Source: Thermoplasmatota archaeon (GTDB lineage Archaea; Thermoplasmatota; E2; UBA202; JdFR-43). From it: 64,000 nt of DNA. The notes under the pieces were generated by a model. That model saw only the letters and a program-made list of their open reading frames with translations, ran no database searches and was not told the origin of the DNA. Position 1 is the first letter of the stretch, and each line of letters opens with the position of its first letter. The position numbers and the translations under genes were made by a program. The stretch covers positions 5,935 through 69,934 of the forward strand of contig JAPDJP010000014.1 in assembly GCA_029259055.1 (NCBI GenBank), given 5' to 3'. Shown here piece by piece: positions 6,808 to 64,000 of the stretch.

Positions 6808-6862
6808 CTAATAACAAAAACTTTAACAAAAACTTTATATACAAAGGAAGAAAAATAATATT

Positions 6863-7615: not shown

Positions 7616-7661
7616 TATTGAAAAAACACTATTTATATATAAAACTATTTTATTTGCCTTA

Positions 7662-21096: not shown

Positions 21097-22448
21097 TGAT
21101 GGAAGAAATCGGAGAAATAAAGGAAAGTGCAACAGCAACATTCACTTTTAAAGCTTTTAAGGATATAAGAAAACTTGATTATGTATTTGTCGAAAATGTT
21201 TTGGCTCAGGTATGGGAAGTGAAACAAACGGTAAATGGCATTTTTGCTTATGCAACAATAATTGGCTCGATAAATGATAAATTTATGCCAAGAACTCCTT
21301 TTAAAATAGGAAGTAAAGTATATAGAGCTAATGAGAAAATTATTAAAAAAATTATTGGAATTGAAAATGAAGGAATATATATAGGACTCCTCAAAGATAC
21401 AAACATTAAGGTTCATCTTTCCCCAAAAGTTTTGATTCAAAAGCATTTATGTATATTAGCAAAAAGCGGAAGCGGGAAAAGTTATGCAATGGGTGTAATC
21501 ATTGAAGAATTTATTAAAAAGAATATACCAATTGTAATAATTGACCCACATGGAGAGTATACATCTTTAAGGAGACCAAACTTGGATAAACAAGACGTCT
21601 CAATAATGAAAAAATTTGGGATAAAACCAAGGTCTTATTTAAAAAATGTGTATGAATTTTCTCCAGTTTGTAGTAGAAACAAAGAAGCTATACCATTATA
21701 TATTGATGAAACGAATTTATCATTTCAAGATTTACTCAATTTATTACCAAATGCAACACCCTTACAAAAAGGAATATTATATGAAGCGCACAAAAAGGCG
21801 CAGGAAAAGAAAATATATTTATTAAAGGATATACTGGAATATATAAAAGAATCGAAGAGCAATGCAAAATGGAACCTTATTCCACAGATAGAACAAATTA
21901 TTTCAATGAAATTATTCTCAGTAAATTATACTCCAATAAATGAAATAGTCAAAAAAGGAAGATGTTCGATAATAAATTTGAAAGGAACGCCCCCATATAT
22001 TCAGGAAATATTGGTTGGTTTACTATTAAATAAAATATTTGAGCATAGAAAAAATGAAAAGATTCTTCCTGTGATGATAGTGATTGAAGAAGCTCATAGA
22101 TATTGCCCTGAAAAAGGACAGGGAAAAAGCTTTTCTAGTAGTATAATAAGGACAATTGCATCAGAAGGAAGGAAATTTGGAGTGGGTTTAGCTATTGTAA
22201 GCCAAAGACCAGCCAGAGTCGATAAAAATGTAATTTCCCAGTGTAATACCCATATAATACTTAAAACAACAAATCCAAATGACTTAAAAACCATTGTTGC
22301 AAGTGTTGAAGGCCTAAATTCAAAGGCATCAGACGAAATCCAAATGCTTCCAATAGGTACAGCAATAATTGCGGGTTTGCCTTTGGCAACCCCAATTTTT
22401 GTTGAGATAAGACCAAGAGAGACATTACATGGGGGAAAACTGGATTGA
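21096..22448 (+). CDS. HerA/FtsK-like P-loop ATPase (DUF87)
   Basis: Walker A CILAKSGSGKS. Walker B hydrophobic run plus EEAHRY. Arginine-rich C-terminal region. 450 aa. No NurA partner seen. Confidence 0.55.
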   Translation: MMEEIGEIKESATATFTFKAFKDIRKLDYVFVENVLAQVWEVKQTVNGIFAYATIIGSINDKFMPRTPFKIGSKVYRANEKIIKKIIGIENEGIYIGLLKDTNIKVHLSPKVLIQKHLCILAKSGSGKSYAMGVIIEEFIKKNIPIVIIDPHGEYTSLRRPNLDKQDVSIMKKFGIKPRSYLKNVYEFSPVCSRNKEAIPLYIDETNLSFQDLLNLLPNATPLQKGILYEAHKKAQEKKIYLLKDILEYIKESKSNAKWNLIPQIEQIISMKLFSVNYTPINEIVKKGRCSIINLKGTPPYIQEILVGLLLNKIFEHRKNEKILPVMIVIEEAHRYCPEKGQGKSFSSSIIRTIASEGRKFGVGLAIVSQRPARVDKNVISQCNTHIILKTTNPNDLKTIVASVEGLNSKASDEIQMLPIGTAIIAGLPLATPIFVEIRPRETLHGGKLD

Positions 22449-36129: not shown

Positions 36130-37779
36130 ATGTATCCAAAAGAATTTGAAAAATCTATAAGAAAGGTTGAAGAAACAAGGCAAGAAAGGCTTAAAAAGCC
36201 TCCGGAGAGGTTAGGCGAAAAAGAAAAGGAAGAATTATTAAAGAAATGGCATCCAGATTATAAGCCGGAGGCAAAAAGAAAATTAAGAGTAGGAGTAAGT
36301 AAAGGAAGCATTGTACCAAATGAGGTTGCAGACATAATTGAGGCATATCCTTTAATTAATCCAGATGAGATCGATTTAAGCCAAATTGACTATGAAACCG
36401 ATATTTTAATTATTGGAGGTGGAGGTGCAGGAACTGCGGCAGCTTTATTTGCATACTATAATGGCATATCTCCAGAAAATATAATAATTGCAACAAAACT
36501 TCGCCATGGGGACAGCAATACAATAATGGCTCAGGGAGGAATACAAGCTGCAGACAAAGAAAATGATTCACCAGTTATCCATTATTTGGATGTTATAGGA
36601 GGAGGACATTTCGCAAACAAGCCGGAGTTAGTGGCTAGGCTTGTTTTAGATGCTCCTTTAATAATAAAATGGCATGAAGAACTTGGTGTAATGTATGATA
36701 AAAAGGAAGATGGAGAAATGATAACTATACATGGAGGAGGTACTAGCCGAAAAAGAATGCATTCAGCCAAAGATTATACCGGAATGGAAATAATGCGCGT
36801 GCTAAGAGACGAGGCAAGAAATATTGGTATAGAAGTATTGGAATTTTCTCCAGCCATTGATTTACTTATTGATGATGAGGGAAAAGTAGGCGGAGCATTG
36901 CTATATAATTTGGAAACAGACCAATATTATGTTGTAAAAGCGAAGGCAGTTATTCTGGCAACAGGAGGATTTGGAAGATTACATATACAAGGATTTCCAA
37001 CAACCAACCACTATGGAGCAACAGCCGACGGCCTAGTAATGGCGTATAGAGTTGGAGCAAAGCTTAGAGATATGGATTCTGTACAATATCATCCTACTGG
37101 TGTAGCGTATCCTGAACAAATAGTTGGGTTACTTGTTACGGAAAAGGTGAGAGGATTAGGTGCTCAACCTGTGAATGTGGAGGGAGAACAATTCGTACAT
37201 CCTCTGGAGCCAAGAGATGTTGAAGCAGCTGCAATCATAAGAGAATGTTATGGAAGAAATAAAGGTGTTATTACACCTACTGGAATGCGTGGAATATGGC
37301 TCGATTCCCCAATGATTGAAATAATACATGGAAAGGGAACTATTGAAAGAAGGCTTGGAGCAATGTTTAGAATGTTTAAGAGATTTGATATTGATATGCG
37401 TTACGAACCAATTCTTGTGTTTCCGACGCTTCATTATCAAAATGGGGGTATTGAAATAAATGAGAATGCTCAAGTTCTCGGCATAAATGGAATAATAAAG
37501 GGACTATTTGCAGCTGGAGAAGTAGAAGGAGGAGTTCACGGAAAAAATAGGCTTATGGGTAATTCATTGTTAGATACACAAGTATTTGGAAGAATAGCTG
37601 GAATTAATGCTGCAAAATATTCAAGAAAGGCAAAAGTAGGAAAATTGAGTTTAGAGCATGTCAAAAAATATGTAGAAGAGCTAAAAAAGGCAGGAATAAA
37701 GGAAGAAAGAAAAGCCCCAATCTTGCTTCCAGATTATAGAGAAAAGAAAGTATTATCGAGAGCAATAGACATATTATAG
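36130..37779 (+). CDS. fumarate reductase/succinate dehydrogenase flavoprotein-like (TfrA-like) with about 90-aa N-terminal extension
   Basis: ILIIGGGGAGTAAAL FAD motif. SVQYHPTG (QFHPTG-type) motif. C-terminal helical domain. Confidence 0.75.
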   Translation: MYPKEFEKSIRKVEETRQERLKKPPERLGEKEKEELLKKWHPDYKPEAKRKLRVGVSKGSIVPNEVADIIEAYPLINPDEIDLSQIDYETDILIIGGGGAGTAAALFAYYNGISPENIIIATKLRHGDSNTIMAQGGIQAADKENDSPVIHYLDVIGGGHFANKPELVARLVLDAPLIIKWHEELGVMYDKKEDGEMITIHGGGTSRKRMHSAKDYTGMEIMRVLRDEARNIGIEVLEFSPAIDLLIDDEGKVGGALLYNLETDQYYVVKAKAVILATGGFGRLHIQGFPTTNHYGATADGLVMAYRVGAKLRDMDSVQYHPTGVAYPEQIVGLLVTEKVRGLGAQPVNVEGEQFVHPLEPRDVEAAAIIRECYGRNKGVITPTGMRGIWLDSPMIEIIHGKGTIERRLGAMFRMFKRFDIDMRYEPILVFPTLHYQNGGIEINENAQVLGINGIIKGLFAAGEVEGGVHGKNRLMGNSLLDTQVFGRIAGINAAKYSRKAKVGKLSLEHVKKYVEELKKAGIKEERKAPILLPDYREKKVLSRAIDIL

Positions 37780-39543
37780 CAATATTCTACCTATCTCTTC
37801 CAACGTATCTAAATCATTCATTTTGACCATCTTATTTGATATAGTATATAATACATTGTCAATATATAATGCTCTTTTTACAAAGCTTTCGTAATCCCAG
37901 CAAATTTCTTCTAAATGGGTTATTCTCCCTTTAAATTTAAATCCGCTTAAATTCAATTTGTATACATAAGCTCCCTGAAAAACAAACTTTCTGTATATTC
38001 TTGAATAATTTGCATCTATTTCTTTGCACATTTCGTGCACTCTGACAGGTATAACTAACAATTCTTTTTTTCTATCGAACAAAAATGCTTTATGGTCATA
38101 TAATGCCAAGCTATCCGTTCCTATATCTCCTATAACAACCTTATCTATTTCTTTGGGTTCATCAGGATTGGTAACATCAAATAAAGCAATTTTAAGTCCT
38201 TCTGTAACTCCAATATTTTCGTCTGCCTCTTTCCCTATTCCAATTATGTGATTCTCATCATATGGATGCAAATAATCGGAATAGCCAGGTATTTTTAATT
38301 TTCCTAAGATCTCAGGTTTATAAGGGTTGGATAAATTTATAACAAAAAATGGGTCCATCCTTTTAAAAGTTACAAGATATGCCCTATTTCCCATAAATCT
38401 TGCAGAATAAATTTCTTCTCCAACAGCAATATTTTCTAATTTTCCTACTATACTTAGATTTTCGTCCAATATGTAAATATTATTACTTGAGTTTGTCCAT
38501 GAATAACCAATTGTTGTGGCTATCCTAAAAAATCCATTATATTCGTCCATGGAAAATTGATTTAGAATTCTTCCCAATACTTCTCCAAATGCTTCATATG
38601 AGATTTTGCCATTTTTTATTGATATTCTATGAATTATTGTTCTTTCTTTGTAATAATAACTATAACTGTATTTTCTACACGCTAAGAATATATTATACTT
38701 TGAAACATACATTGTTTGCACATTACCAATAACAAAACTTTTTTGGTCAATAATTTCTCCTCTTATACTTATCGCAATAACATTTGTAATGGAATCTATT
38801 GTATAAGGCATGTCCATGTAATAAATGCAATTAATAGGTGTTGATATGGTCTCATTATCAATTCTTATTTTTGGTAAATTTAATATTTCCTTTTCTTCAT
38901 AAGTAAAATAAATATCAAATGGTTCTTCAATAGTTACAATATAAACATAGTTATCCAGCATTCTTGCATCGAAATATCTTCCGTCTACTTCGATGTCTTT
39001 TATTAATTTAGGCTCTTCTCTATTTGAAATATTATATATCTTAATGAGTGTTGTTGGAAAACCTCTGGAGTAATTCCCAAATTCTAAATATCTATAGGAA
39101 TAGCAAAAAACAATGAGATAATCCTTATTAATAAAAATATCCATTGGTTCAACGTCTAATACTATTTTGGAAGAAATATTAGCATTTTCTGGAGGATAAG
39201 CCCTTATAATATAAATTTTCTGGTTCGTAACCATATAAATATATTCTCCATCTGTTTTGACAAAATCTGGTTCATCAACTCCTTCTACCTGAACATTTGT
39301 TTTAGAAAAATCAATATAATCTGATGATTTGGCATGAAAATCTGCTCCTTCTACAGCATCTACAACAATTTCTCCTTTATATACTGGAGTAAAAATTTCC
39401 CCCATATTATTTCTGAAAAATTCCAAAACTTGATGATATGTAGTGAAGGGTTTTAATTTATATGTATACTCTCCTCGGCTTGGGATGATGACTACCAATG
39501 TTATTAATATTAAAATTACCAATGCTATTTTTTTCCAGTCCAT
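37774..39543 (-). CDS. secreted beta-propeller-domain protein (COG4880-like)
   Basis: N-terminal TM/signal. C-terminal repetitive blade-like segments as in the archaeal secreted beta-propeller family. Recall-based. Confidence 0.45.
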   Translation of the reverse strand: MDWKKIALVILILITLVVIIPSRGEYTYKLKPFTTYHQVLEFFRNNMGEIFTPVYKGEIVVDAVEGADFHAKSSDYIDFSKTNVQVEGVDEPDFVKTDGEYIYMVTNQKIYIIRAYPPENANISSKIVLDVEPMDIFINKDYLIVFCYSYRYLEFGNYSRGFPTTLIKIYNISNREEPKLIKDIEVDGRYFDARMLDNYVYIVTIEEPFDIYFTYEEKEILNLPKIRIDNETISTPINCIYYMDMPYTIDSITNVIAISIRGEIIDQKSFVIGNVQTMYVSKYNIFLACRKYSYSYYYKERTIIHRISIKNGKISYEAFGEVLGRILNQFSMDEYNGFFRIATTIGYSWTNSSNNIYILDENLSIVGKLENIAVGEEIYSARFMGNRAYLVTFKRMDPFFVINLSNPYKPEILGKLKIPGYSDYLHPYDENHIIGIGKEADENIGVTEGLKIALFDVTNPDEPKEIDKVVIGDIGTDSLALYDHKAFLFDRKKELLVIPVRVHEMCKEIDANYSRIYRKFVFQGAYVYKLNLSGFKFKGRITHLEEICWDYESFVKRALYIDNVLYTISNKMVKMNDLDTLEEIGRILL

Positions 39544-39638: not shown

Positions 39639-40799
39639 ATGATTTATTCGTATTCAGCTATTTCTTCATTTGAAGCATGTCCCCTAAAGTTTAAGTATGC
39701 GTATATCGACAAAATTGAGCCTTTAAGAAGAAATATAGAGGCTTTTATGGGGAATAGGGTTCATGAAGCTTTAGAAAAACTTTATAGAGATAAATTATAT
39801 GAAAAGGTTTGTTCATTGGAAGAATTATTAAATTTTTATAATGAAAGATGGAAAAAGGAAATGAGCGAACAAATATTTGTTACTAAGGAAGAATATCGTA
39901 TAGAAAATTATAGGAAAATGGGAGAAAGATATTTAATAGATTATTATAATACCTACAAGCCATTTGATGAAGGAAGAATAATTGCGCTAGAGAAAAAAGT
40001 TTTTTTCCCATTAAATGAAAAATACTGGATTGTAGGAATAATAGATAGAATTGTTGAAAAAGATGGAAAATATGAAGTTCATGATTATAAAACCTCTCTA
40101 TATTTTCCAACAAAAAAAGAAATAGAAAATGATTGTCAACTTCAATTATATGCTTTAGCTTTGGATTATTTATATGGAATAAAAGAAGTTGAATTAGTTT
40201 GGCATTTTTTAGCCTTTAATAAAGAAATAAGATTAAAGAAAAGGAGCTATGAAGGAGCAAGAATGGAATTAATAAAGAAAATAGAAAAAATAGAAAAGGC
40301 AATAAAATCGAATGAATTTCCACCAAGAGAATCTTCCTTATGCCCATATTGTGAGTATCAACCAATCTGTCCGGTTTTCAGACATAAATATAAATTAGAA
40401 GAAATGGAAGAAATTACGGAGGAAGAGGGTTTTAAATTGGTAAATGAATATTGGAACATATTGACAAAAATTGAAGAATTAAAGATTCTTAAGGAAGAAA
40501 TTAAGGAAAAACTTATAGAATATGCTAAAAGAAATAATTTACAATGTGTCTATGGAAGTGAAAAAGTAGCAAATATTAAAATAAGTAAAAATTTGTATTT
40601 TAACAAAAAATTAAAAATTAAGGAAATCCTTAAAAAAGAGGGATTATACGAAAAATATACAAAACTTGATACTTGGAAATTAGCGGATGATTTCAGAAAT
40701 AACTTACTTCCTAAGCATTTAATGGAAAAATTGAGAGAATTTATTGAGGAAAAAGAAAACACAAGAATTTATTTAAAAAATTTGGAAAGGGAAGAATAA
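39639..40799 (+). CDS. PD-(D/E)XK nuclease with Cas4/AddB-type Cys cluster, stand-alone
   Basis: N-terminal YSYSAISSFEACPLKFKY. D/E-x-K core. C-terminal CPYCEYQPICP (C...CxxCx5C pattern). Confidence 0.6.
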   Translation: MIYSYSAISSFEACPLKFKYAYIDKIEPLRRNIEAFMGNRVHEALEKLYRDKLYEKVCSLEELLNFYNERWKKEMSEQIFVTKEEYRIENYRKMGERYLIDYYNTYKPFDEGRIIALEKKVFFPLNEKYWIVGIIDRIVEKDGKYEVHDYKTSLYFPTKKEIENDCQLQLYALALDYLYGIKEVELVWHFLAFNKEIRLKKRSYEGARMELIKKIEKIEKAIKSNEFPPRESSLCPYCEYQPICPVFRHKYKLEEMEEITEEEGFKLVNEYWNILTKIEELKILKEEIKEKLIEYAKRNNLQCVYGSEKVANIKISKNLYFNKKLKIKEILKKEGLYEKYTKLDTWKLADDFRNNLLPKHLMEKLREFIEEKENTRIYLKNLEREE

Positions 40800-52362: not shown

Positions 52363-53700
52363 ATGGCATATTACCAACCAATGAGAAAAAAAGTAATAAT
52401 AATGGGGGCTGCGGGAAGAGACTTTCATAATTTCAATGTTTTTTTCAGAAATAATAAAGAATATGAAGTAATTGCTTTTACAGCTGCACAAATTCCAAAT
52501 ATTTCTGGGAGGAGATATCCAAAGGAGCTTGCAGGCGAACTTTATCCAAATGGCATACCAATTTATAGCGAGGATGAACTTCCAGATTTAATAAAGAAAC
52601 ATGGAGTGGATGAAGTTATCTTTTCATATACAGATGTTTCATATCAATATGTAATGAATAGATGCTCCATTGTAAATGTTGCTGGGGCAGATTTTAAATT
52701 ATTGAGTCCAGAGCATACAATGCTTAAATCAAAAAAACCTGTTATTGCAGTATGTGCTGTAAGGACGGGATGCGGAAAATCCCAATTTTCAAGAAAAATT
52801 TTCGAAATTTTGGCTAAAAGATGTAAAGTTGTGGCAATAAGACATCCAATGCCATATGGAGATTTAGCAAAGCAAAAATGCCAAAGATTTGCAAGTTATG
52901 AAGATTTAGACAGGCATGAATGTACCATAGAGGAAAGAGAAGAATATGAGCCGTATATTGATATGGGGGGCGTAGTATATGCGGGTGTTGATTATGAAGA
53001 AATCCTAAAAGAGGCTGAAAAAGAGGCAGATGTAATCATATGGGATGGAGGAAATAATGACTATCCATTTTATAAACCTGACTTGCATATTGTAATCGCT
53101 GATCCTCATCGAGCGGGACATGAACTTTCATATTATGCTGGAGAAATAAACTTGAGGATGGCTGATGTTGTCATTATAAATAAAATTGATACAGCAAAGG
53201 ATGAGGATATAAAGAAAATAGAGAAAAATGTTAGGAATGCCAATCCAAAAGCAAAAATAATCAAAGCTACGTCCCCTATAAAAATTGAAGGTGATATAAA
53301 AGGAAAAAGAGTCTTGGTCGTAGAGGATGGCCCCACTTTAACACATGGAGAAATGAAATTTGGTGCTGGAACAATAGCAGCCATGAAAGAAAATGCCGAG
53401 ATAATTGATGCAAGAAAATATGCTGTTGGTTCCATTAAAGAAACTTTTGAAAAATATTCTCATCTAGAAAAAATATTGCCAGCGATGGGATATGGAGAAG
53501 AGCAAATAAGGGATTTAGAAAAAACAATAAATTTGGCGGATTGCGATGTTGTTTTAGCTGCAACACCTATTGATTTAAAAAGAATCATAAAAGTGAATAA
53601 GCCAATTATTAGGGTAAGATATGGAGTGGGGGAAGAAGCAGAAAAAGAGTTAGAAAAAATAATCGAGGAGTTTCTAAAAAATGTTGATTTTTCCAGCTAA
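52363..53700 (+). CDS. cpgS: cyclic 2,3-diphosphoglycerate synthetase
   Basis: About 445-aa protein with N-terminal KVIIMGAAGRDFHNFN and P-loop-like CAVRTGCGKSQ. Matches my recollection of COG2403 cPGS. Confidence 0.65.
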   Translation: MAYYQPMRKKVIIMGAAGRDFHNFNVFFRNNKEYEVIAFTAAQIPNISGRRYPKELAGELYPNGIPIYSEDELPDLIKKHGVDEVIFSYTDVSYQYVMNRCSIVNVAGADFKLLSPEHTMLKSKKPVIAVCAVRTGCGKSQFSRKIFEILAKRCKVVAIRHPMPYGDLAKQKCQRFASYEDLDRHECTIEEREEYEPYIDMGGVVYAGVDYEEILKEAEKEADVIIWDGGNNDYPFYKPDLHIVIADPHRAGHELSYYAGEINLRMADVVIINKIDTAKDEDIKKIEKNVRNANPKAKIIKATSPIKIEGDIKGKRVLVVEDGPTLTHGEMKFGAGTIAAMKENAEIIDARKYAVGSIKETFEKYSHLEKILPAMGYGEEQIRDLEKTINLADCDVVLAATPIDLKRIIKVNKPIIRVRYGVGEEAEKELEKIIEEFLKNVDFSS

Positions 53701-55370: not shown

Positions 55371-55474
55371 TAAGGATTTAATAGAAGCTAAATTTGACAT
55401 AATAGAAACAATTCGCTTATTTAATTTCTTGAAGAAGATGCTTTGTAAAGATCTTGAAATTTCTTAAAAAGGTT
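55367..55474 (+). pseudogene. HepT (HEPN toxin) N-terminal remnant, 35 codons
   Basis: ATGA-overlapped ORF MIDKDLIEAKFDIIETIRLFNFLKKMLCKDLEIS. Resembles HepT N-terminus but lacks the Rx4HxY region. It runs into the 3' end of the convergent AbiEii gene. Confidence 0.45.
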
Positions 55475-56325
55475 TCAAATTCTTTAGTCGGTTTAACGAT
55501 AAACATGCTTCTTTCGAAAGGGTCTTCTAAAATTTCATTTCCGATATCGAAAAACTTTCTATTCTTTTCCAAGTTTTCTCTATATTTTTGATAATAAAGA
55601 GAAAAAAGTATCTTATCTATTATCTGTTGCTTTAATTTACTTACAAGAGTCAATTTTGGATCCACCACGAATATATCATAGAAATCTCTCAATTTTTGTT
55701 TCCTTCTTGTCAATATAGCTCTTATTTTTTCACAAAGGATTTCTTTTATATCGTAAACTACCACATTAAAAGGCTTATAAAATTCAAAAAAATCTTGAAA
55801 ATATGTTTTTTCGTTTCTATCTAACTTAGCGTTTGTTAATAATGTATTTGCTCTTCTTTCCTTAGGTTTAAACAAAATTTTCTCGACAAAATTTACTTGG
55901 ATCTTAATTATTTCTTCTTTATACCACATTTTAAACGTTACCATTCTTCCACCTCCTCCAAACTCAAAATATTTTTTATCCTCCAAATTAGAGAGAAAAT
56001 CGATATTCATCTTCTTTCCTACCAATTCAAGAAATTTTGCAAATTCATTTATTTTTTCTATCAGTTTCTTTCTTATCCTTTTCCTTCCTAATCCTTCCCA
56101 TATCTCCTGATTTAACCATGTAAAATCTAGATCAACACTAAACCTATAATATCCTAAATAACACTTTATCAAACAACTACCTCCCTTAAAGATGTAATTC
56201 CTTCCAAAGTTTTCTGAAATTTCTTTCAGAATTCTGTGAATTATAACATCTCTTTCAATTAACGATCTATTTTCTATTCCTGTTTTCTCGGCAATAAATT
56301 CAACAAATTCAGATAAGTCTGGCAT
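55417..56325 (-). CDS. AbiEii/DUF1814-family nucleotidyltransferase (type IV TA toxin)
   Basis: FKGGSCLIKCYLGYYRFSVDLDF core motif of AbiEii family. Confidence 0.65.
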   Translation of the reverse strand: MPDLSEFVEFIAEKTGIENRSLIERDVIIHRILKEISENFGRNYIFKGGSCLIKCYLGYYRFSVDLDFTWLNQEIWEGLGRKRIRKKLIEKINEFAKFLELVGKKMNIDFLSNLEDKKYFEFGGGGRMVTFKMWYKEEIIKIQVNFVEKILFKPKERRANTLLTNAKLDRNEKTYFQDFFEFYKPFNVVVYDIKEILCEKIRAILTRRKQKLRDFYDIFVVDPKLTLVSKLKQQIIDKILFSLYYQKYRENLEKNRKFFDIGNEILEDPFERSMFIVKPTKEFETFLRNFKIFTKHLLQEIK

Positions 56326-56935
56326 TTTCCATCATTCCTTTAACACTTTTTGGATAAAATTTCACATACTTTGCTAATCTTTTTCTATTCACTTTATTCC
56401 TGTATTCTTCAATAAAAGAAATAATCTTTTCTTCTGGTACAGACCTGTATCTAAAAATATAAATAAAATCTAGCAATGTTTTTTCAATATCGGAGAATGG
56501 AATTTCATCATTTTTAATCCCAAAGCTCAATAATTTTGGTTTTAACTTAATGAACTTCACTTTTTCTCCCATAACCTTTATTTCCTTTGCTCTGAAAATT
56601 TTATCGTTTATTATGAAGATAGTATCAAAAAATTCATGGGTTAAACCATTCAATCTTAATGCTGTGTACAAACCAAAATACCATTTTATCCTAAGTTTAT
56701 TCATTCCTAAGGAAAGAATTCGATAAATACTCAACGCTTTTTTCAATTTAAATTCTTCAATGTTCTTTACATAATATAACCCTCTCAGAATTCTTATCAA
56801 ATATCCATAGTAAATCATAAAGTTCAGTGTATTATCAATGTTTACCCTAAATCTTTTCAAGACTTTTTCTATTTCTTCCCTTTCTAAAACCTTTCCTCCA
56901 TATTCCGAAATCAAGTATTTTATCGCATTCCTCAT
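56309..56935 (-). CDS. AbiEi-like antitoxin/transcriptional regulator (tentative)
   Basis: Upstream, overlapping partner of AbiEii. About 200 aa with N-terminal wHTH-like region. Confidence 0.45.
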   Translation of the reverse strand: MRNAIKYLISEYGGKVLEREEIEKVLKRFRVNIDNTLNFMIYYGYLIRILRGLYYVKNIEEFKLKKALSIYRILSLGMNKLRIKWYFGLYTALRLNGLTHEFFDTIFIINDKIFRAKEIKVMGEKVKFIKLKPKLLSFGIKNDEIPFSDIEKTLLDFIYIFRYRSVPEEKIISFIEEYRNKVNRKRLAKYVKFYPKSVKGMMENARLI

Positions 56936-57038
56936 GATTGTTATTTATATAACAATAATTAAAAAAGTTTTTGGTTGTTATATAAATAACAAGATGGAAA
57001 TGACAATATTTTACGTCCTTTTATATATTTTACCACTA

Positions 57039-57087
57039 AAAAGTATTTAAATACTCTTAAAAATATTTCTAATTAGGGTAGATAATC
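57039..57087 (+). promoter_or_regulatory. repeated promoter element copy B
   Basis: AAAAGTATTTAAATACTCTTAAAAATATTTCTAATTAGGGTAGATAATC then ATGCAA. Confidence 0.55.
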
Positions 57088-58905
57088 ATGCAACGTACTT
57101 TACGAATTCCAAGCTTTGTAACACCAGAAGCATATTTTAAAGTCATAAGCGAAGAGTTAGCTCGCCGTATCCTTTCTCGACCTTACGAAGCAGATGCTTC
57201 TTTTTCCACTTACTCACAAGCTTTACCAAGCATAGAAAGTGAATATGTTACTCCTAGCAATATTTGTGTTTCTTATAATATTAATGGTAAGCCAACTTTG
57301 GAGCAATTGATTGATGGATTACCTTCAGAAGAAGAAAGAGGGATAGAGAAGATTTACAATTCGTTAAGCGAGGGGAAAAGGAAAGAGCTGTATGATGTTC
57401 TTTTCTATGATAAGCTTATTACCGATGTTGCTGATAGAAGTGAGATTAAAGAGCTTAGAAATAAAATCTACTTTTCTGAAATTGGTAAGAAAAGCAGAAA
57501 GGAAGTGAAAAGGAAAATAAGGGAGGAGATTGAGCGATATTTAGAGAATAACGTTAAGCCCATTATAGAAGAATATAGAAAAGAACTTCTTTCTCGAGCA
57601 AATGGAGAGAGCGATTTAACCAACGTAATTAATGAAATCTTTTCTCCTCAAAATGCAGGCGATTACCTAAGAGCTTTAGAATACATAAAGAAAATCGGAT
57701 TTCACAATTTTCTAGAAGAACTCGTGTTTGAAAACGAAAATCCTTCTTCTCCTGTTGAATATCTCCACGAAGCCATTGCAAGCGATGCAATGGCTGATTA
57801 TTTGCTAAGGAAAGGACTGTATCATATTAGCAAAGATGGTGCTCTTGAAAGAGCAAGCAGCTATGGAGAAATATTTCACAAGCTCTCTAAGCAAGAAAGA
57901 AAAAAAGTCAAGGAATATGAAAAGAAGCTTGGGTTGAGGAAGAGCAAGGCATTTGCAATTGGAGCTGCAAGCATTATATTAGGAGCGATAGGAGCAGCAG
58001 CTTATCATGCCTACAAAAGCGGAGAAAAGCTTAAAGGAGATGGCTCTTACTTTTTCCACAACCCTAATGATTACATAAAATATCTAAAATCAATATGGAA
58101 CAAACACAGCAACGATATTGACAACGATCGTATTCCTAATGATGTTGAGGAAAAGTATGGGTTGGATATGTTTGATGGAAAGGATGCCTGGAAAGATAAC
58201 GATGGTGACAAGTTTCCTGATTGGTTTGAAGAAAAGGTAAGTGGAACAGACCCAGTCATTCCAAATCATAGATGGGCGATCTTGGAGCATGGATTTAATA
58301 AAGGTGGGATAGGGTTATACAAAATATTTACTAAAAAATTAGGGGAGAAGGAGGTTCCTTGGGAGGCTTCGGGTTTAGGTTTCGATAAAGACAAAGTCAT
58401 ACTCCTTAAAGGTCCTAATGCAACATTTCAGAATTATCTTGATGCCATAAATGAAACGAAGCAAAAAATTTCTCCGAATGATTTTTTGGTGATAAGGATA
58501 TATGGGCATGGAGCTGAAGGGTGGTTTGGTTTTAATAACGGGAGCGAATTAAAAGATGATTATACGTCAGATTTGCATCAATATTCTGAAATAATAAAAC
58601 CAATAGAGGATGTTGAATGTGATCGTATAATCTTTTTTATAGACGCTTGTTATAGTGGTTCGGCAATACAATCATTTAAAAAAGCTTTATTTAAGTCTCC
58701 TATTATTGTATATACAAGTGGGAAAAGCGACGAAACAACTGCACCTCATATCGACAATTTTCTAAAAGCATTAGATGATAAAAAGCGGATAGAGATGGAA
58801 ACTATTTTATTTCCCTTTATGAAGCTTATAAAAGTGTATACGATGAAGTTTCAACATTTAAATATGAACCAGACTATCCTCAACAATACGATCCTTTTAA
58901 TTTAG
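57088..58905 (+). CDS. single-pass membrane protein: cytoplasmic N-domain, TM, DxDGD Ca-like motifs, extracellular legumain/GPI8-like (C13) peptidase domain
   Basis: TM AFAIGAASIILGAIGAAAYHAY at about aa 290. DNDGDKFPDWFE. His in RIYGHGAEGWF and Cys in IIFFIDACYSGSAI, paralleling legumain HG and EACESGS catalytic dyad. Confidence 0.6.
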   Translation: MQRTLRIPSFVTPEAYFKVISEELARRILSRPYEADASFSTYSQALPSIESEYVTPSNICVSYNINGKPTLEQLIDGLPSEEERGIEKIYNSLSEGKRKELYDVLFYDKLITDVADRSEIKELRNKIYFSEIGKKSRKEVKRKIREEIERYLENNVKPIIEEYRKELLSRANGESDLTNVINEIFSPQNAGDYLRALEYIKKIGFHNFLEELVFENENPSSPVEYLHEAIASDAMADYLLRKGLYHISKDGALERASSYGEIFHKLSKQERKKVKEYEKKLGLRKSKAFAIGAASIILGAIGAAAYHAYKSGEKLKGDGSYFFHNPNDYIKYLKSIWNKHSNDIDNDRIPNDVEEKYGLDMFDGKDAWKDNDGDKFPDWFEEKVSGTDPVIPNHRWAILEHGFNKGGIGLYKIFTKKLGEKEVPWEASGLGFDKDKVILLKGPNATFQNYLDAINETKQKISPNDFLVIRIYGHGAEGWFGFNNGSELKDDYTSDLHQYSEIIKPIEDVECDRIIFFIDACYSGSAIQSFKKALFKSPIIVYTSGKSDETTAPHIDNFLKALDDKKRIEMETILFPFMKLIKVYTMKFQHLNMNQTILNNTILLI

Positions 58906-59043: not shown

Positions 59044-59481
59044 ATGAAAAAGAAATTTCTAGTTGTAGTAGTACTTCTTTTTTTAATAGCCTTTACAAAG
59101 AATGTTTATGCTGCATGTAAAATTTCTTGTTATACTTGTAGTCCCTTCCAGGGTTGTCCTCAAATTCCATCTGGATGCTGGTATGAAGAAGGAAATTATG
59201 TAGAAAGAATATGTATAGTTGGAGATGTAAGTTACGGTCCTGGCGATGGGCAGGAAGAGGGTTGTGTAGATGCGGGAGATTACTGGGGATGTTCGTGTTA
59301 TGATCCTCAAGGATACTGCGGAAATGAGATTTGTTTAGCTACAAGTGAGGGATATAACGGAGCGACATGCGAAATAAAAGATCGATGCTTTTGGAGTGGT
59401 TGTGGTTGGAAAACTGTATCTGGTAAATGGGATGCATCTGAAGATAAATGTGTAAAATGTGATAGTAAAATAAAGAAATAG
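59044..59481 (+). CDS. secreted cysteine-rich small protein (signal peptide, about 24 Cys)
   Basis: MKKKFLVVVVLLFLIAFTKNVYA signal. Mature part dense in Cys/Gly/Asp/Tyr. Confidence 0.6.
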   Translation: MKKKFLVVVVLLFLIAFTKNVYAACKISCYTCSPFQGCPQIPSGCWYEEGNYVERICIVGDVSYGPGDGQEEGCVDAGDYWGCSCYDPQGYCGNEICLATSEGYNGATCEIKDRCFWSGCGWKTVSGKWDASEDKCVKCDSKIKK

Positions 59482-60296
59482 GAATTTTAGGAGATACTTC
59501 AGGAATATACGTCGGTTGTGGAGATGATAATCCCAACTCTGGCAATGGGCTATGCGAATCTGCATGTAATGAAACGGTTGCTCCAGAATGTGACGAACAT
59601 CCTCCTGGCTATCCATGTGGAACAAACAATCCCCATGCAACATGGGGGGTTTGTTGCTACGATGAGCTAACTGGAGAAACTTTTTGCGCAAGATCAGAGA
59701 ACTGCGGTCCTCCTGATGACGAAGTGAATACAGGGATTCCTTGTGATAACACAGAGGATTGTGTGACTTGTACCAATGAATGTAAATGTCCAGTACAACC
59801 ATGTGAAGATGAATGTACCTATGGAAAAAAAAGATGTAGTGGTTCTGTAGCTCAGCAATGTGGAGATTGTGACGATGATCCTTGTTATGAATGGTGTGAT
59901 GTTGAAGATTGTTCCAGCAAGTGGGATAAGTGGACATGTAAGCCTGGAACAACCAAACGTTGTTGGAAAGATGGATATTGTAGTAATGGAAACTGTTATG
60001 CAACCTATTCTTCTTGCTCTTGGTACAAAGATTGTGGTGCAGAGTGTGAAGCTGGAGATACAAAAACATGCCCTGATGGAACTGTTGTGAGTTGTGATAC
60101 TTCAACATGTACATTTCCAAGTTGTCCTTCTGAAATCCCAGAAGGAGCTATAAGAGTCTTCGTAACGTCTAAACAATATAGAGGAGATCTTGGTGGATTA
60201 GGTGGAGCGGATGCAAAATGTCAGGCGAGGGCTGACAATGTAAAAAGCATTAATCATTCGATAATCATCCGAGAATTATCTGATGAAGAAACATAA
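59469..60296 (+). CDS. cysteine-rich protein segment without own ATG; probable frameshifted continuation of 59044..59481
   Basis: Frame is open from 59469, 13 nt before the stop of the upstream Cys-rich ORF. No ATG until far downstream (track start 59724 is GTG). Same Cys-rich composition. Confidence 0.45.
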   Translation, partial: NKEIGILGDTSGIYVGCGDDNPNSGNGLCESACNETVAPECDEHPPGYPCGTNNPHATWGVCCYDELTGETFCARSENCGPPDDEVNTGIPCDNTEDCVTCTNECKCPVQPCEDECTYGKKRCSGSVAQQCGDCDDDPCYEWCDVEDCSSKWDKWTCKPGTTKRCWKDGYCSNGNCYATYSSCSWYKDCGAECEAGDTKTCPDGTVVSCDTSTCTFPSCPSEIPEGAIRVFVTSKQYRGDLGGLGGADAKCQARADNVKSINHSIIIRELSDEET

Positions 60297-60327
60297 TACG
60301 TTGATCTCTTTATCAATATGTTTTCGT

Positions 60328-60546
60328 TTACAAAAATTCCTCAATAGACTTTCTAGTTTGCTTAACTATATATTTCAATACAAATTTGCTTATCTCTTTA
60401 TGTAGTGGGACCCATGTTGTAAGAACTTTACCATTTTCCAATCGCTTTTTAAAAGTCATATGCTTTCTTGTTCTTACGTTCTTAAATCCATTTTTCTCTA
60501 GAACTTCGATTACTTTACGCTGAGGAAGAGGCTTTAATTTTACCAT
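60328..60546 (-). CDS. hicA: HicA-family toxin (YcfA-like mRNA interferase)
   Basis: LPQRKVIEVLEKNGFKNVRTRKHMTFKK pattern of HicA. 72 aa. Confidence 0.55.
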   Translation of the reverse strand: MVKLKPLPQRKVIEVLEKNGFKNVRTRKHMTFKKRLENGKVLTTWVPLHKEISKFVLKYIVKQTRKSIEEFL

Positions 60547-60775
60547 GCGCCTTACCTCTTAAAACAATAGAAGAGAACGTTATTGAAATAGACTTAAAAA
60601 CTTCAATATTTGGCTTTGGTGTGTCAGGATCTTCCATATATTCTTTAATTAAATCTTCCATATTTTCTTTTGCTTCCTTTTGAGTTTTTCCTTGGGTTGC
60701 TAACTCGAATATAGGGCAAAAAGCAATCCACCATTTATCTTCTTTAAACAAAATAATGGGAACCGGTACAGACAT
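60515..60775 (-). CDS. hicB: HicB-family antitoxin (UPF0150)
   Basis: MSVPVPIILFKEDKWWIAFCPIFELATQGKTQKEAKENMEDLIKEYMED matches HicB N-domain pattern. Start trimmed. Confidence 0.5.
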   Translation of the reverse strand: MSVPVPIILFKEDKWWIAFCPIFELATQGKTQKEAKENMEDLIKEYMEDPDTPKPNIEVFKSISITFSSIVLRGKAHGKIKASSSA

Positions 60776-60850
60776 ATCTTTATCACCTTGCATAATACTA
60801 AGTTTTGGCACATATAAATCTCTTTTCATTCAATATATATTTCACCACCA

Positions 60851-60895
60851 TCAAGCATTTAAATACCCTTAAAAATATTTCTAATAGGGGTGAGT
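60851..60895 (+). promoter_or_regulatory. repeated promoter element copy C
   Basis: TCAAGCATTTAAATACCCTTAAAAATATTTCTAATAGGGGTGAGT then ATG. Confidence 0.5.
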
Positions 60896-62770
60896 ATGCG
60901 TTTTGCCCTTCACATAAAACCAGAATACGTAGAAGCTGTGAGCAACGAGCTTTTAAAGAGAGCTAGAGGCTTGTTAGCGTATCCTATCGATACTACCAGC
61001 GTTAGAGTTTCAACAGATTTTCAGGAATACTGGAATGATAATGTGAATTACAATCCTGAGATTCCGAAAGAGATAAAAGAAATGTTAAATCTCTATGATG
61101 GTAGGGAGAAAGACAATATCTACAATGCTTTTATACAGGATAAATATATTGAGGAATTGATCAATGGAGCGAGGGAGATCAAAAGGAAAATTTACATGGA
61201 AAATGTGGGGAGAAAAAGCAGAAAGGAGATAAAAAAGGAGATAAGGCAAGCTGTAAAGAAGTATATGGAAGAAAATGCAGGATTGCTTTTAGAAAGATAT
61301 AAGGAAGAATTGAAGAGAAAAGCGGGAGATGAGTTGAAAAACAAAATAGAGGAATTTTTTTCCGCTAACAATTTGAAGGATTATTATGAAAAGTTGAGCC
61401 ACATAAAATTCGTTGGCATCGACTCTACTTTAGAAGATCCAACCAAGTCTGCTGAAGATTACTTACATTCCCTATTGAAGGAAGAGGCAGCAGCAGACTA
61501 TCTAACTAGAAAGGGGCTTTATTTCATTAGCGGAGACGGAGAGTTGAAGAGAGCAAAGAATTATAAAGAAATATTTCACAAGCTCTCTAAGCAAGAAAGG
61601 AAAAAAGTCAAGGAATATGAAAAGAAGCTTGGGTTGAGGAAGAGCAAATTATTAACATGGATATCTATTGGTAGTCTTCTAGGCTTATCAGCTGCAGCTC
61701 TTGCTTATGCTTCTATGGATCCAGACCATGATGGACTTAGAAATCTGGGCGAGATTCACCATAGAACAGATCCTCACAACCCGGATACAGACGGCGATGG
61801 TATTAACGATTATGAAGAAATATTTAAATATAATACAAATCCTCTTAAACCAGATAGCGATTATGATGGATTAACAGATTTTCAAGAAATCTTTAATTAT
61901 TCAACAGATCCGTTAGACCCGGATTGCGATAAGGATAACTTATTAGACGGTCAAGAAATTGAAAATAAAACCGATCCCTTTTCTATTGATACAGATGGGG
62001 ATTGGATAAGAGATGATCTTGAAATATTTAAACATCATACCGATCCTACAAAGTTAGATACAGACGGCGATGGTATAGATGATTTTAATGAACTTTTTAC
62101 ATATCCTCATATCTTGAATGCTACGAAAAAGGATGCCGAAAAATTACTAAGCAAGATTCCGAATGTACAGCCAATGCCATGGAATGAAAGTAATGACTAT
62201 ATTAAAGAAAATATAGGTGTTTATCCTTGGGAAGGTTTTATAGGAAGATATAAGGTAGATAATTGGGATCACATTATAATTTCTATTTCAAAGCGAGACC
62301 CATTAGTTAAGTTTTTTGCTAAGCACGCTTACATAGAATGGCTTGGACCTAAAAAAGATCCAGGAGGTGAGTGGTCCTATAGCAATGTGGGTATTCTAAA
62401 AACTTACGGTGGAAGAATATCTAAAGAATATGGAAGAGGTGGACCAGTTCAGCCGTCCCACTTCCTCACCTCTGGAAGAATCGGGACTTGTCAGCACGCG
62501 TCAGTTACTGCAGCAACACTTTTACAACTTATGGGATATGATTCAGTACTTGTTTATGGAGACTATGAACCTATTGGTCAAACATTAGGTCATCAATGGG
62601 TAGAGACTGTTATAGATGGTGAGGTATATGTTGTTAACTTTGATGGGTTAGCTCCAAGGGATGAATTTTATTTTTGGAATCCAGACCTTAAGAAAGTTGC
62701 AATTGGTGGGATAGAAGGAGCTTGTATACCTTATGACCCAGACTGGTATAAAAAAGGCTTACATGTGTAG
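60896..62770 (+). CDS. single-pass membrane protein paralog: shared cytoplasmic N-domain, TM, thrombospondin-type-3-like DxDxDGxxD repeats, extracellular transglutaminase-like Cys-His-Asp domain
   Basis: Start at ATG 60896 (track start is GTG). TM LLTWISIGSLLGLSAAALAYA. Repeats DPDHDG, DTDGDGINDYEEI, DSDYDGLTDFQEI, DTDGDGIDDFNEL. GTCQHAS ... GHQWVE ... D. Confidence 0.6.
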   Translation: MRFALHIKPEYVEAVSNELLKRARGLLAYPIDTTSVRVSTDFQEYWNDNVNYNPEIPKEIKEMLNLYDGREKDNIYNAFIQDKYIEELINGAREIKRKIYMENVGRKSRKEIKKEIRQAVKKYMEENAGLLLERYKEELKRKAGDELKNKIEEFFSANNLKDYYEKLSHIKFVGIDSTLEDPTKSAEDYLHSLLKEEAAADYLTRKGLYFISGDGELKRAKNYKEIFHKLSKQERKKVKEYEKKLGLRKSKLLTWISIGSLLGLSAAALAYASMDPDHDGLRNLGEIHHRTDPHNPDTDGDGINDYEEIFKYNTNPLKPDSDYDGLTDFQEIFNYSTDPLDPDCDKDNLLDGQEIENKTDPFSIDTDGDWIRDDLEIFKHHTDPTKLDTDGDGIDDFNELFTYPHILNATKKDAEKLLSKIPNVQPMPWNESNDYIKENIGVYPWEGFIGRYKVDNWDHIIISISKRDPLVKFFAKHAYIEWLGPKKDPGGEWSYSNVGILKTYGGRISKEYGRGGPVQPSHFLTSGRIGTCQHASVTAATLLQLMGYDSVLVYGDYEPIGQTLGHQWVETVIDGEVYVVNFDGLAPRDEFYFWNPDLKKVAIGGIEGACIPYDPDWYKKGLHV

Positions 62771-62975: not shown

Positions 62976-63431
62976 TTGTTGGAATTATTCTTATTGTGTT
63001 ATTTTGTTGGAGGGGTTTTCTTCTTCACGAATATAAAAGAAAAGCCTATAAAATGTGTAAATGGAACGATTCCAAAAAGTATTTTTTGCTTAGTAGAAGA
63101 GCCGAAACTCTTACAAGAAAATAGCTACATGGAAATAAAATTCCTATTGGGAAAAAATGAAAAATTAAGTGAGAATGATTATTTAATTCTATTAACGGAT
63201 CTCGATAATGTTTCTGTTCAAAGTAATTTAAAATTCGTCAGATCAAGATATCAGTTTTCAGCGGATATAAAGAACGAAAAGAGAGTTGAAATTAACATTT
63301 CTGGTTACCTTCCGTCGAGAAACAAGGAAATATGGTTCAATAACTCCCTTATTCGCTTGCCAAATCATGTATTGTTATTCGAAATTCAAAAAACTGAGAA
63401 AGGTGTAAAGGTATATGAGATTTATGAATAG
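62976..63431 (+). CDS. small hypothetical protein with hydrophobic N-terminus
   Basis: ORF-track only. Alternative ATG at 62963 in another frame gives a 52-aa TM peptide. Neither is supported by motifs. Confidence 0.25.
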   Translation: MLELFLLCYFVGGVFFFTNIKEKPIKCVNGTIPKSIFCLVEEPKLLQENSYMEIKFLLGKNEKLSENDYLILLTDLDNVSVQSNLKFVRSRYQFSADIKNEKRVEINISGYLPSRNKEIWFNNSLIRLPNHVLLFEIQKTEKGVKVYEIYE

Positions 63432-64000
63432 AACTTTACTTATTACTTTGATATTGTTATTATCACTATTGAGCATTGGATATGCTCCAGATACATGTCC
63501 AATATGCACTCTAAGATATTGTTGTAGTCCGGGATATTGTGATGAAGGTACTATAACTTATTGGACACCAGCTCCATGTACCCATAATCCTGGTGCCCAA
63601 GAATCATCTTGTACAGCAGGTCAGTGGTCTCCATGCCCACAGAATGTGTGGAAGTGCTATGATTATTGTGTTCAGACAAGTGATGAAGAGTGTCCAACAG
63701 ATGAACCATATTGTTATATTATCCAACCAGATCCTAATCCACCTTGTACAGATAACGGGGTACCTGAAGTAGAGCATGGATACTGCGTAGAGTGCTATGA
63801 AAATTATCATTGTCCAGGAACTGATGATGCTTGTGAATGCGGAAAAGATTTTACTTGTAAACCATGTTCTGAAAATGAATATTGTGATAAAAATAGATGC
63901 CGATCAAAGAAAAAATGTGGGACTGGGGTGGGGGAGATGTGTAAGGGATATAATGTAGCAGAATGTGATTTCTTCTATTGTAGCAGAGAAGGAGAGTGTG
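63424..64000 (+). CDS. secreted cysteine-rich protein, 3'-partial (runs off window)
   Basis: ATG at 63424 gives MNRTLLITLILLLSLLSIGYA signal then CPICTLRYCCSPGYCDEG... Cys-rich to window end. Absent from ORF track because there is no stop. Confidence 0.55.
   Translation, partial: MNRTLLITLILLLSLLSIGYAPDTCPICTLRYCCSPGYCDEGTITYWTPAPCTHNPGAQESSCTAGQWSPCPQNVWKCYDYCVQTSDEECPTDEPYCYIIQPDPNPPCTDNGVPEVEHGYCVECYENYHCPGTDDACECGKDFTCKPCSENEYCDKNRCRSKKKCGTGVGEMCKGYNVAECDFFYCSREGEC

Follow-up and report, generated by a model that had tools for sequence, protein, structure and literature searches.

A putative membrane-anchored extracellular thiol enzyme of the transglutaminase-like superfamily in a Thermoplasmata-related archaeon

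A gene located at positions 60896..62770 of the window (the whole 64,000-nucleotide stretch of contig JAPDJP010000014.1 that was analysed) raises the question of what a transglutaminase-like protein preceded by calcium-binding-type repeats does in an archaeon. The transglutaminase-like superfamily was defined by Makarova, Aravind and Koonin in 1999, as cited in PMC2989375. A previous, sequence-only reading of the locus pointed to the pseudomurein endoisopeptidases, which belong to this fold class, and envisaged, should the host be a pseudomurein-containing methanogen, a chromosomal, membrane-anchored enzyme that could take part in cell-wall remodelling. We examined the architecture of the protein, its enzyme domain, its genomic surroundings and the identity of the host.

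Domain architecture and membrane anchoring

The coding sequence (60896..62770, + strand) is complete, with the ATG at 60896 and the stop codon at 62768-62770, and coincides with the open reading frame delimited in the sequence-only reading. It encodes 624 residues, organised in an N-terminal domain, one transmembrane helix, six thrombospondin type 3 (TSP3) repeats and a transglutaminase-like domain, and its product is identical to the database protein P0001 (624 aa). The start codon has AGGGGTGA just 5' of it. This ribosome-binding site and a promoter-like TTTAAATA box make up an upstream region (60834..60891, + strand), recognised by a DNA repeat search and by reading the sequence, that is 86% identical to positions 57022-57079, found 5' of a paralog of the gene.

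The N-terminal domain (aa 1-251; 60896..61648, + strand) is rich in Lys and Glu, is predicted to be all-helical and has no signal peptide. It shares 35% identity with the paralog and about 90% with P0002, a protein encoded in a related metagenome contig, and gave no match in Pfam, NCBIfam, PHROG or PADLOC. Among the fetched proteins and in two metagenome scans no relatives were found beyond its own lineage; the two scans returned nothing but a single fragment and the related contig that was known beforehand. The AF2 model is helical, with a pLDDT of 50.9 that is too poor for a fold search. This orphan domain probably resides in the cytoplasm. Its last part is a conserved pre-membrane segment (61484..61647, + strand, ending in YKEIFHKLSKQERKKVKEYEKKLGLRKSK), delimited by the DNA repeat search and by blastn breakpoints with respect to contig L001 from a related organism; its DNA is 79% identical to the paralog at 57784-57947.

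A Kyte-Doolittle scan revealed a single transmembrane helix at aa 252-272 (LLTWISIGSLLGLSAAALAYA; 61649..61711, + strand), preceded by RKSK and followed by the acidic repeats. The protein is indeed, as first proposed, chromosomally encoded and membrane-anchored. Since basic residues precede the helix and acidic ones follow it, the protein is predicted to have an N-in/C-out topology. An extracellular enzyme is also in keeping with the signal-anchor helix that opens many members of the enzyme family described below.

The six TSP3-type repeats (aa 275-410; 61718..62125, + strand) were identified with Pfam, with a regular expression combined with a shuffle test and with the DNA repeat search. The pattern D.D.D......E[ILV] occurs in register at aa 275, 297, 320, 343, 365 and 388, with a period of 22-23 residues; none of 20000 shuffled proteins reached six repeats, the maximum being one. 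The Pfam profile TSP3_bac (PF18884) scored 46.7 bits (cutoff 25) on this tandem array of DxDxDGxxDxxE motifs. The "five or more" repeats originally noted before the transglutaminase-like domain number six. Repeats of this type are carried by 21 of the 41 aligned family members, and the last one is conserved as part of the C-terminal enzyme module. Judging from these motifs, the stalk probably binds calcium. A literature search combining transglutaminase-like, archaea and thrombospondin type 3 retrieved no paper.

The C-terminal enzyme module

The enzyme module spans aa 411-624 (about 215 residues; 62126..62767, + strand), as judged from HMMER, alignments, Pfam, AF2 and Foldseek, and comprises a family-specific pre-domain (KIPNV..W...S.RDP..), a transglutaminase-like core and a terminal YDPDWY motif. 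The Pfam profile Transglut_core (PF01841) gave 24.1-24.3 bits for the domain taken by itself and 22.4 bits for the whole protein (cutoff 23), a borderline score that nonetheless suggests assignment to this profile and bears out the fold superfamily named at the outset. The module shares with PF01841 the order Cys...His...Asp/Asn, the G-x-C at the start of a helix and the H-x-W-x-E strand; it differs from it in having, besides the borderline score, its own pre-domain (KIPNV...RDPL...), QPSYYFTHGR before the Cys, PR..FY after the triad and YDPDWY at the end.

Recovering the family required an exhaustive HMMER search, because the search with the full-length protein was drowned in TSP3-repeat matches and the C-terminal domain alone retrieved a single match; against the genome collection of species representatives, the 624-aa protein found none. 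The exhaustive search yielded 114 clusters among 1.8 billion representatives, whose named members come from Bathyarchaeota and Aenigmarchaeota metagenome-assembled genomes (MAGs). Among the 41 aligned members, Transglut_core matches 18 (best E 5.8e-8) and DUF553 matches 4 (best E 7.2e-6); the DUF553 profile (PF04473) has no match in the 624-aa protein itself. This is a small, archaeal family without a curated model, and the protein encoded at 60896..62770 is a real, fairly ordinary member of the transglutaminase-like superfamily.

The catalytic residues follow the order typical of this superfamily. Cys532 (codon 62489..62491, in GTCQHAS) and His566 (codon 62591..62593, in GHQWVE) are invariant in 41/41 aligned members, as is Glu570, four residues after the His; the Cys aligns with the catalytic Cys of arylamine N-acetyltransferases (NAT), of the structure 3isr and of DUF553 proteins. 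Of the Cys-His-Asp core initially put forward, the first two residues hold, whereas the Asp implied there, taken to be Asp583, lies in a column occupied mostly by Asn or Gly. The triad is most probably completed by Asn581 (codon 62636..62638): the column of this residue contains N or D in 35 of the 41 sequences (N21/D14/other 6), and its counterparts in the alignments are the catalytic Asp of NAT and an Asp of P0084, a DUF553 protein of Thermococcus siculi. The latter, annotated as a "calcium-binding protein" (TSP3 + DUF553), has a comparable layout, with an N-terminal anchor, many TSP3 repeats and then a transglutaminase-like domain (hhalign against the enzyme family, 87.8% probability over 68 columns, with Cys and His aligned), but it has no large cytoplasmic domain and carries a long additional stretch at its C-terminus.

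A sequence search of the PDB returned only NAT, GdmF and 3isr, all below threshold. The AF2 model of the module has a core pLDDT mostly of 85-97, and with this model Foldseek ranked LapG best (E 1.3e-4), followed by PNGase, TglA, an arylamine N-acetyltransferase and 3isr, a putative cysteine protease of Cytophaga hutchinsonii thus recovered by both sequence profile and structure. Among the 50 PDB matches listed, every one whose annotation is recognisable is a transglutaminase-like or papain-fold protein, with TM-scores of 0.2-0.33. The modelled catalytic core is consistent with a papain-like/transglutaminase fold.

The presence of yeast and mouse PNGase at ranks 2, 7 and 10 (E 1.4e-4 to 2.8e-3) raises the idea of an amidase that is not a peptidase, PNGase-like or of another kind, and that would clip N-glycans or other amide-linked modifications off archaeal surface glycoproteins. 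We regard it as improbable: the TM-scores of these matches do not exceed 0.27 and the sequence identity is about 15%, no PNGase-family Pfam model matched the enzyme region at E<=10, and the similarity is confined to the superfamily level.

The pseudomurein question and the host

PeiW and PeiP (MEROPS C71, PF12386) have in common with the protein a transglutaminase-like fold, a triad of the Cys-His-Asp type and an archaeal setting. Their structures (8jx4 and 8z4f, respectively) appear 13th-14th in the Foldseek ranking (E 3e-3 to 5e-3). Pei enzymes are soluble prophage lysins; the protein studied here, instead, is encoded on the chromosome, sits in the membrane and bears TSP3 repeats, and its host lineage is not known for pseudomurein. 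At the profile level the kinship proposed in the sequence-only reading was not upheld. The control PeiP from phage psiM2 scored 318.5 bits with Peptidase_C71 (PF12386) and 133.9 with the profile of the pseudomurein-binding repeat (PMBR, PF09373), whereas neither profile was reported for aa 393-624 at E<=10 or for the full protein at E<=0.1, and hhalign gave a probability of 0.5% to the alignment of the family profile with PeiP. The lack of PMBR alone is not decisive, since some Pei-related proteins are devoid of it (PMC2989375). The activity of Pei on the epsilon(Ala)-Lys isopeptide bond of pseudomurein is assayed with Methanothermobacter sacculi or synthetic peptides (PMC4592898).

Pseudomurein is known from Methanobacteriales and Methanopyrales only (PMC2989375). 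The best matches of the RtcB encoded in the window, a single marker, belong to neither order: they are the Thermoplasmata MAGs AUK181 and AUK146 (78%), and the DUF92 gene next to RtcB is syntenic in AUK146. These observations indicate, indirectly, that the host probably does not make pseudomurein. The window open reading frames that were scanned contained no Mur-ligase-like genes. The frame at 52363-53700, previously labelled cpgS, had no NCBIfam match at 1e-10 and only a weak cobW-domain match in Pfam. The window does carry HdrA and MvhAG-type genes, which fit a methanogen yet occur in other archaea too.

The protein encoded at 60896..62770 is very probably not a pseudomurein endoisopeptidase. 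The shared fold superfamily and Cys-His core, the two Pei structures among the Foldseek matches and the HdrA and MvhAG-type genes leave a membrane-anchored chromosomal PeiW/PeiP relative that remodels a pseudomurein wall with hardly any probability, when set against the profile and hhalign results, the Thermoplasmata MAGs as nearest genomes by RtcB, the Bathyarchaeota and Aenigmarchaeota origin of the named relatives, the lack of Mur-ligase-like genes among the scanned window frames and the narrow distribution of pseudomurein.

Paralog, neighbouring genes and proposed function

The paralog (605 aa; 57088..58905, + strand) lies 3.8 kb upstream and consists of a similar N-terminal domain with a transmembrane helix, degenerate TSP3-like motifs and a different head, which matches Peptidase_C13 (PF01650; 24.6 bits, cutoff 22.8), a legumain/caspase-like His-Cys family. 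The two products are 35% identical over 398 aa (BLASTP, E 2e-50), and promoter, N-terminal domain and membrane anchor are common to both genes. P0002 is a chimera of the two, joining the N-terminal half of the 60896..62770 gene to the C13 head of the paralog, and the pre-membrane segment at 61484..61647 is the apparent recombination point for this exchange of heads. Directly upstream of the gene, on the opposite strand, is a HicA/HicB-like toxin-antitoxin pair (60328..60829, - strand; Pfam HicA_toxin E 4.6e-9). Positions 2938-4439 of L001 are 93% identical to window positions 60142-61647, so that the HicA/HicB pair travels with the 5' half of the gene.

These relations bring in a possible role as a mobile or variable cassette, a module with exchangeable extracellular heads that serves conflict or niche adaptation rather than housekeeping. 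In L001 the cassette sits at another chromosomal site, between homologs of window positions 26206 and 26253; AbiEi/AbiEii and HicAB genes flank it; the P0002 chimera attests to the exchange of a head; and one family member is clustered with two HerA/DUF87 ATPases. However, no integrase, transposase or terminal repeats of the cassette were found, PHROGs and PADLOC gave no match for the 624-aa protein, and the comparison covers two organisms. Overall, we consider this role unlikely. Modification of virus receptors and attack on neighbours would be examples of it, and it is compatible with the biochemical function preferred below. An equally doubtful extension is a full exchangeable-head system, in which a common promoter, cytoplasmic domain and anchor would be recombined with different extracellular cysteine-enzyme heads, each followed by Cys-rich genes, within a relocatable toxin-antitoxin cassette. 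The head would be transglutaminase-like here and caspase/legumain-like in the paralog, with the exchange taking place at the pre-membrane segment.

Downstream of the gene there are a partner gene coding for 151 aa with an N-terminal hydrophobic anchor (62976..63431, + strand), a homolog (35%) of the 166-aa gene next in line after P0002 on the related contig, and a gene for a Cys-rich secreted protein with the signal peptide MNRTLLITLILLLSLLSIGYA (63424..64000, + strand), which runs off the window. In L001, where a Cys-rich protein is encoded at 6133-8070, and in L002 a similar Cys-rich DUF1554 protein takes the position of the latter, and genes for secreted Cys-rich proteins come after both the 60896..62770 gene and the paralog. 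The order protease, anchored protein of about 150 aa and Cys-rich secreted protein is kept in the window (cassette B), L001 and L002, and the Cys-rich gene overlaps at its start the stop of the preceding one (ATGAATAG in the window). Around three other family members no conserved partner genes were seen.

Retention of secreted partner genes would also suit a genuine transglutaminase or transpeptidase, which would cross-link secreted proteins (the Cys-rich ones, for instance) or attach them covalently to the cell surface, the C13 paralog then being a legumain- or GPI-transamidase-like ligase. The fold allows acyl transfer besides hydrolysis, transglutaminase-like and NAT enzymes appear among the matches, and the families of both paralog heads include transpeptidases. 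On the other hand, the protein bears no specific resemblance to any characterised cross-linking enzyme, its top structural matches, LapG and PNGase, are hydrolases, and the sequence gives no evidence of acceptor-site features. We give a cross-linking activity a small but appreciable chance and infer that hydrolysis prevails. Most prokaryotic transglutaminase-like proteins are thought to break amide bonds, as LapG does in trimming an adhesin.

LapG (4fgp, 4fgq, 4fgo; TM-score about 0.3) is an extracytoplasmic, calcium-dependent thiol protease that cuts a surface adhesin under cytoplasmic control (PMC3032545, PMC4359373). By analogy, the combination of a predicted extracellular head with calcium-binding repeats and a putative cytoplasmic domain, next to genes for secreted proteins, suggests a comparable logic for the archaeal protein. 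There are also clear differences: the 624-aa protein has no LapG-family Pfam match, the enzyme carries its own membrane anchor and cytoplasmic domain in one polypeptide, genes for a LapD-like receptor or a LapA-like substrate were not found near 60896..62770, and the archaeal host has no periplasm bounded by an outer membrane.

Taking these data together, the explanation that we favour, and deem fairly probable, is a single-pass N-in/C-out protein of a Thermoplasmata-related archaeon with an extracellular transglutaminase-like thiol enzyme acting on surface proteins. The lineage-specific helical domain of about 250 residues would stay in the cytoplasm, and outside the membrane the six TSP3 repeats would form a stalk, probably calcium-binding, that holds a papain-fold thiol enzyme with the triad Cys532-His566-Asn581. 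This enzyme would most likely break, and possibly transfer, amide bonds in extracellular or cell-surface proteins, its likeliest substrates being the Cys-rich secreted products of the adjacent downstream genes or the surface layer of the cell itself. It is most likely an extracellular thiol peptidase or amidase directed at surface proteins, possibly calcium-dependent; it may have a general part in the processing of surface or envelope proteins.

The analysis removes a tempting but very probably wrong annotation, that of a chromosomal pseudomurein isopeptidase in a methanogen, and replaces it with the description of an anchored extracellular thiol enzyme in a lineage with an unstudied cell envelope. 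Head exchange involving the two paralogs offers a concrete, if modest, case of modular evolution in archaeal surface proteins; if heads are truly exchangeable, this would be an archaeal route to diversify the processing of surface proteins, possibly during conflicts with viruses or neighbours. If the enzyme processes the co-encoded Cys-rich secreted proteins, the system would be a simple archaeal counterpart of the bacterial control of adhesins by proteases.

Domain architecture of the membrane-anchored protein

The gene at 60896..62770 (+) is one open reading frame encoding 624 aa, identical to the 624-aa protein P0001 of the public protein collection. The ORF listing gave GTG at 60890 as an alternative, longer start; the sequence read at the upstream end is AGGGGTGA followed by ATG at 60896, which was taken as the probable start rather than GTG 60890. 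A Kyte-Doolittle scan revealed a single hydrophobic helix (aa 252-272), with LGLRKSK on its N-terminal side and acidic sequence on its C-terminal side. The pattern D.D.D......E[ILV] then occurs six times in register (starting at aa 275, 297, 320, 343, 365 and 388); none of 20000 shuffled versions of the protein contained six repeats, the maximum being one. This stretch matched Pfam TSP3_bac with 46.7 bits (cutoff 25), as well as the NCBIfam models of the TSP3-rich proteins CglD and MtsD. Against Pfam Transglut_core (cutoff 23 bits), the C-terminal ~215 aa scored 22.4 bits when the whole protein was searched and 24.1-24.3 bits when the domain was searched by itself. These results confirm the sequence-only reading, which had placed "five or more" DxDxDGxxDxxE-type repeats before a transglutaminase-like domain. 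TSP3 repeats are extracellular calcium-binding modules; for this reason, and because of the charge distribution around the helix, the topology is probably N-in/C-out, so that a stalk of TSP3 repeats, themselves probably calcium-binding, would hold the enzyme on the outer side of the membrane.

Catalytic domain and its family

When the catalytic domain alone was the query, a word-indexed search gave one relative, and exhaustive HMMER with a profile from two sequences picked out 114 of 1.84 billion representative clusters, 82 with E<=1e-10. Across 41 aligned members, Cys532, His566 and Glu570 never vary. The column of Asn581 contains Asn in 21 members and Asp in 14; in alignments, the counterpart of this residue is the catalytic Asp in arylamine N-acetyltransferases and an Asp in P0084, a Thermococcus siculi TSP3+DUF553 protein. 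Given the two invariant residues Cys532 and His566, the Asn/Asp column and the alignment with the acetyltransferase Asp, the putative triad is best written Cys-His-Asn/Asp. Of the Cys-His-Asp core proposed earlier, Cys and His stand; Asp583, the residue probably meant, lies in a column of mostly Asn or Gly. The family has its own conserved motifs (KIPNV..W, S.RDP, QPSYYFTHGR.G.C, PR..FY and a terminal YDPDWY). Transglut_core is matched by 18 of the 41 members and DUF553 by 4; TSP3 repeats occur in 21, the final repeat (DTDGGG.DDFNE.YTY) being kept as part of the family module.

The AlphaFold2 model of aa 393-624 had a mean pLDDT of 77.9, with most of the core at 85-97. Among the 50 Foldseek matches listed against the PDB, the annotated ones were all transglutaminase-like or papain-fold, in the order LapG (E 1.3e-4), PNGase, TglA, arylamine N-acetyltransferase (1w4t), 3isr, PeiW, PeiP, TgpA and vasohibins. 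From these matches, with TM-scores of 0.2-0.33, membership of the transglutaminase-like superfamily is solid. Foldseek against the PDB and the family searches found no characterised close relative. The protein is new within a known superfamily and belongs to an archaeal subfamily that is small and has no curated model; some relatives carry the database labels 'transglutaminase domain-containing protein' or 'transglutaminase-like putative cysteine protease'.

In family members P0146 and P0157, a C2H2-type zinc finger stands N-terminal to the membrane helix, and P0191 and P0156 have a different N-terminal domain of 480-580 aa, so that unrelated cytoplasmic domains recur before the same TM-TSP3-enzyme module. 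P0162 (L085, 1-17005; Bathyarchaeota contig JAOZIE010000008.1) is encoded within an extended run of genes on one strand, most of them lacking annotation, whose products include two HerA/DUF87 ATPases, an AAA ATPase and a Flg_new_2 protein; the run may represent an element that has integrated, or a locus for a surface structure.

The pseudomurein question

The chief source of interest in this protein was a proposed link with pseudomurein endoisopeptidases and cell-wall remodelling, and this link fails. Peptidase_C71 and the pseudomurein-binding repeat models gave no match with the enzyme region at E<=10 or the full protein at E<=0.1, and none of the 41 family members matched Peptidase_C71; the positive control, genuine PeiP of phage psiM2, scored 318.5 and 133.9 bits, respectively. 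In hhalign, the family profile gave a probability of 0.5% against PeiP and 87.8% against the Thermococcus TSP3+DUF553 protein, and PeiW (8jx4) ranked 13th in Foldseek (E 3.2e-3). Pseudomurein is known only in Methanobacteriales and Methanopyrales (PMC2989375). The closest matches of the window RtcB, in a comparison with GTDB species representatives that did not include the window's own genome, were two Thermoplasmata MAGs from Pescadero Basin (78%), followed by more Thermoplasmata and Thermoplasmatales MAGs; synteny with one of the first pair extends to the DUF92 gene adjoining RtcB. Those family members whose organism is named belong to Bathyarchaeota (P0131, P0162) or to an Aenigmarchaeota MAG (P0148), and no Mur-ligase-like gene was seen among the window ORFs scanned. 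The cell-wall interpretation is not supported.

Outside the cassettes, the window is ordinary archaeal chromosome (Pus10, eIF2-alpha, Cdc6, mevalonate-pathway enzymes, 2-oxoacid:ferredoxin oxidoreductase, HdrA, MvhG/A-like hydrogenase, succinyl-CoA ligase, archaeal SAM synthetase). The putative cpgS (cyclic 2,3-diphosphoglycerate synthetase) at 52363-53700 (+) gave a weak match to a cobW/HypB/UreG nucleotide-binding Pfam model (E 1.1e-6) and no NCBIfam match at 1e-10. A Cas4-like nuclease domain protein (39639-40799, +; under the NCBIfam cutoff), a HerA-type helicase (21096-22448, +) and a 589-aa beta-propeller protein (37774-39543, -; Pfam Beta_propel E 7e-160) have no connection to the target.

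Probable function, neighbouring genes and proposed head exchange

Architecture, conserved catalytic residues and fold are established for this protein; its chemistry would most likely be thiol-dependent cleavage of amide bonds, peptide bonds or others, in proteins outside the cell. Prokaryotic transglutaminase-like proteins in general are predicted to act in this way. Such cleavage is the demonstrated activity of LapG, its best structural match, a calcium-dependent protease that frees an adhesin (PMC3032545, PMC4359373). A cross-linking role and an N-glycanase-like role, PNGase being second in the Foldseek order, are rivals to amide-bond cleavage. Downstream lie genes for an anchored 151-aa protein (62976-63431, +; 35% identity to the product of the 166-aa gene after P0002, a related protein on contigs L001 and L002) and for a Cys-rich secreted protein (63424-64000, +, running off the window), whose start codon, ATG at 63424, overlaps the stop codon of the 151-aa gene (ATGAATAG). 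The L001/L002 counterpart of the latter is a DUF1554 protein of 645-655 aa, and the order protease, ~160-aa protein, Cys-rich DUF1554 protein is the same in both contigs. These genes are conserved and translationally coupled, and in this lineage the Cys-rich proteins would be the leading candidates for the substrate; such neighbours were absent around other family members in the three neighbourhoods examined.

A paralog (57088-58905, +; with upstream region 57022-58905) shares with the target a 58-nt upstream region (86% identity), an N-terminal domain (35% identity overall), a membrane helix and, directly before it, 29 identical residues. In place of the transglutaminase-like head it carries a legumain/caspase-like Peptidase_C13 head (24.6 bits, cutoff 22.8) with the motifs ..YGHG.. 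and ..DACYSG... The N-terminal domain, modelled poorly as all helical (pLDDT 50.9), had no relatives outside this lineage among fetched proteins and metagenome scans. The Cys-rich gene after the paralog (59044-60296, +) appears frameshifted and truncated: a 145-aa ORF with signal peptide ends at 59481, and the Cys-rich reading picks up in a different frame (~59470 to 60296), stopping just inside a DUF1554/LenA-like domain, where the HicAB-bearing segment begins. The two protease cassettes are flanked, and set apart from each other, by two gene pairs: a complete AbiEi/AbiEii pair (55417-56935, -; PADLOC E 3e-80 and 1.3e-96) and one resembling HicA/HicB (60328-60829, -). A conflict-related role is a further rival to amide-bond cleavage.

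In the related organism, the whole cassette (L001 2607-8116) lies between homologs of window 26206 and 26253, directly upstream of 2-oxoacid:ferredoxin oxidoreductase genes, and thus at a different chromosomal site; in the window this site is an empty 47-bp gap, ~31 kb from the cassettes. This comparison turned up neither an integrase nor terminal repeats. P0002 itself reads as a chimera of the target N-terminal half and the paralog C13 head: in L001 2938-4664, its 5' half and upstream HicAB pair are 93% identical in nucleotides to window 60142-61647, and the following 380 nt 91% identical to paralog 57793-58172. As the junction falls within the conserved pre-membrane segment (57784-57947 / 61484-61647), it suggests recombinational exchange of heads between the two genes. 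This head-exchanging paralog cassette, seen in two organisms, is the sole mildly unusual aspect of the system.
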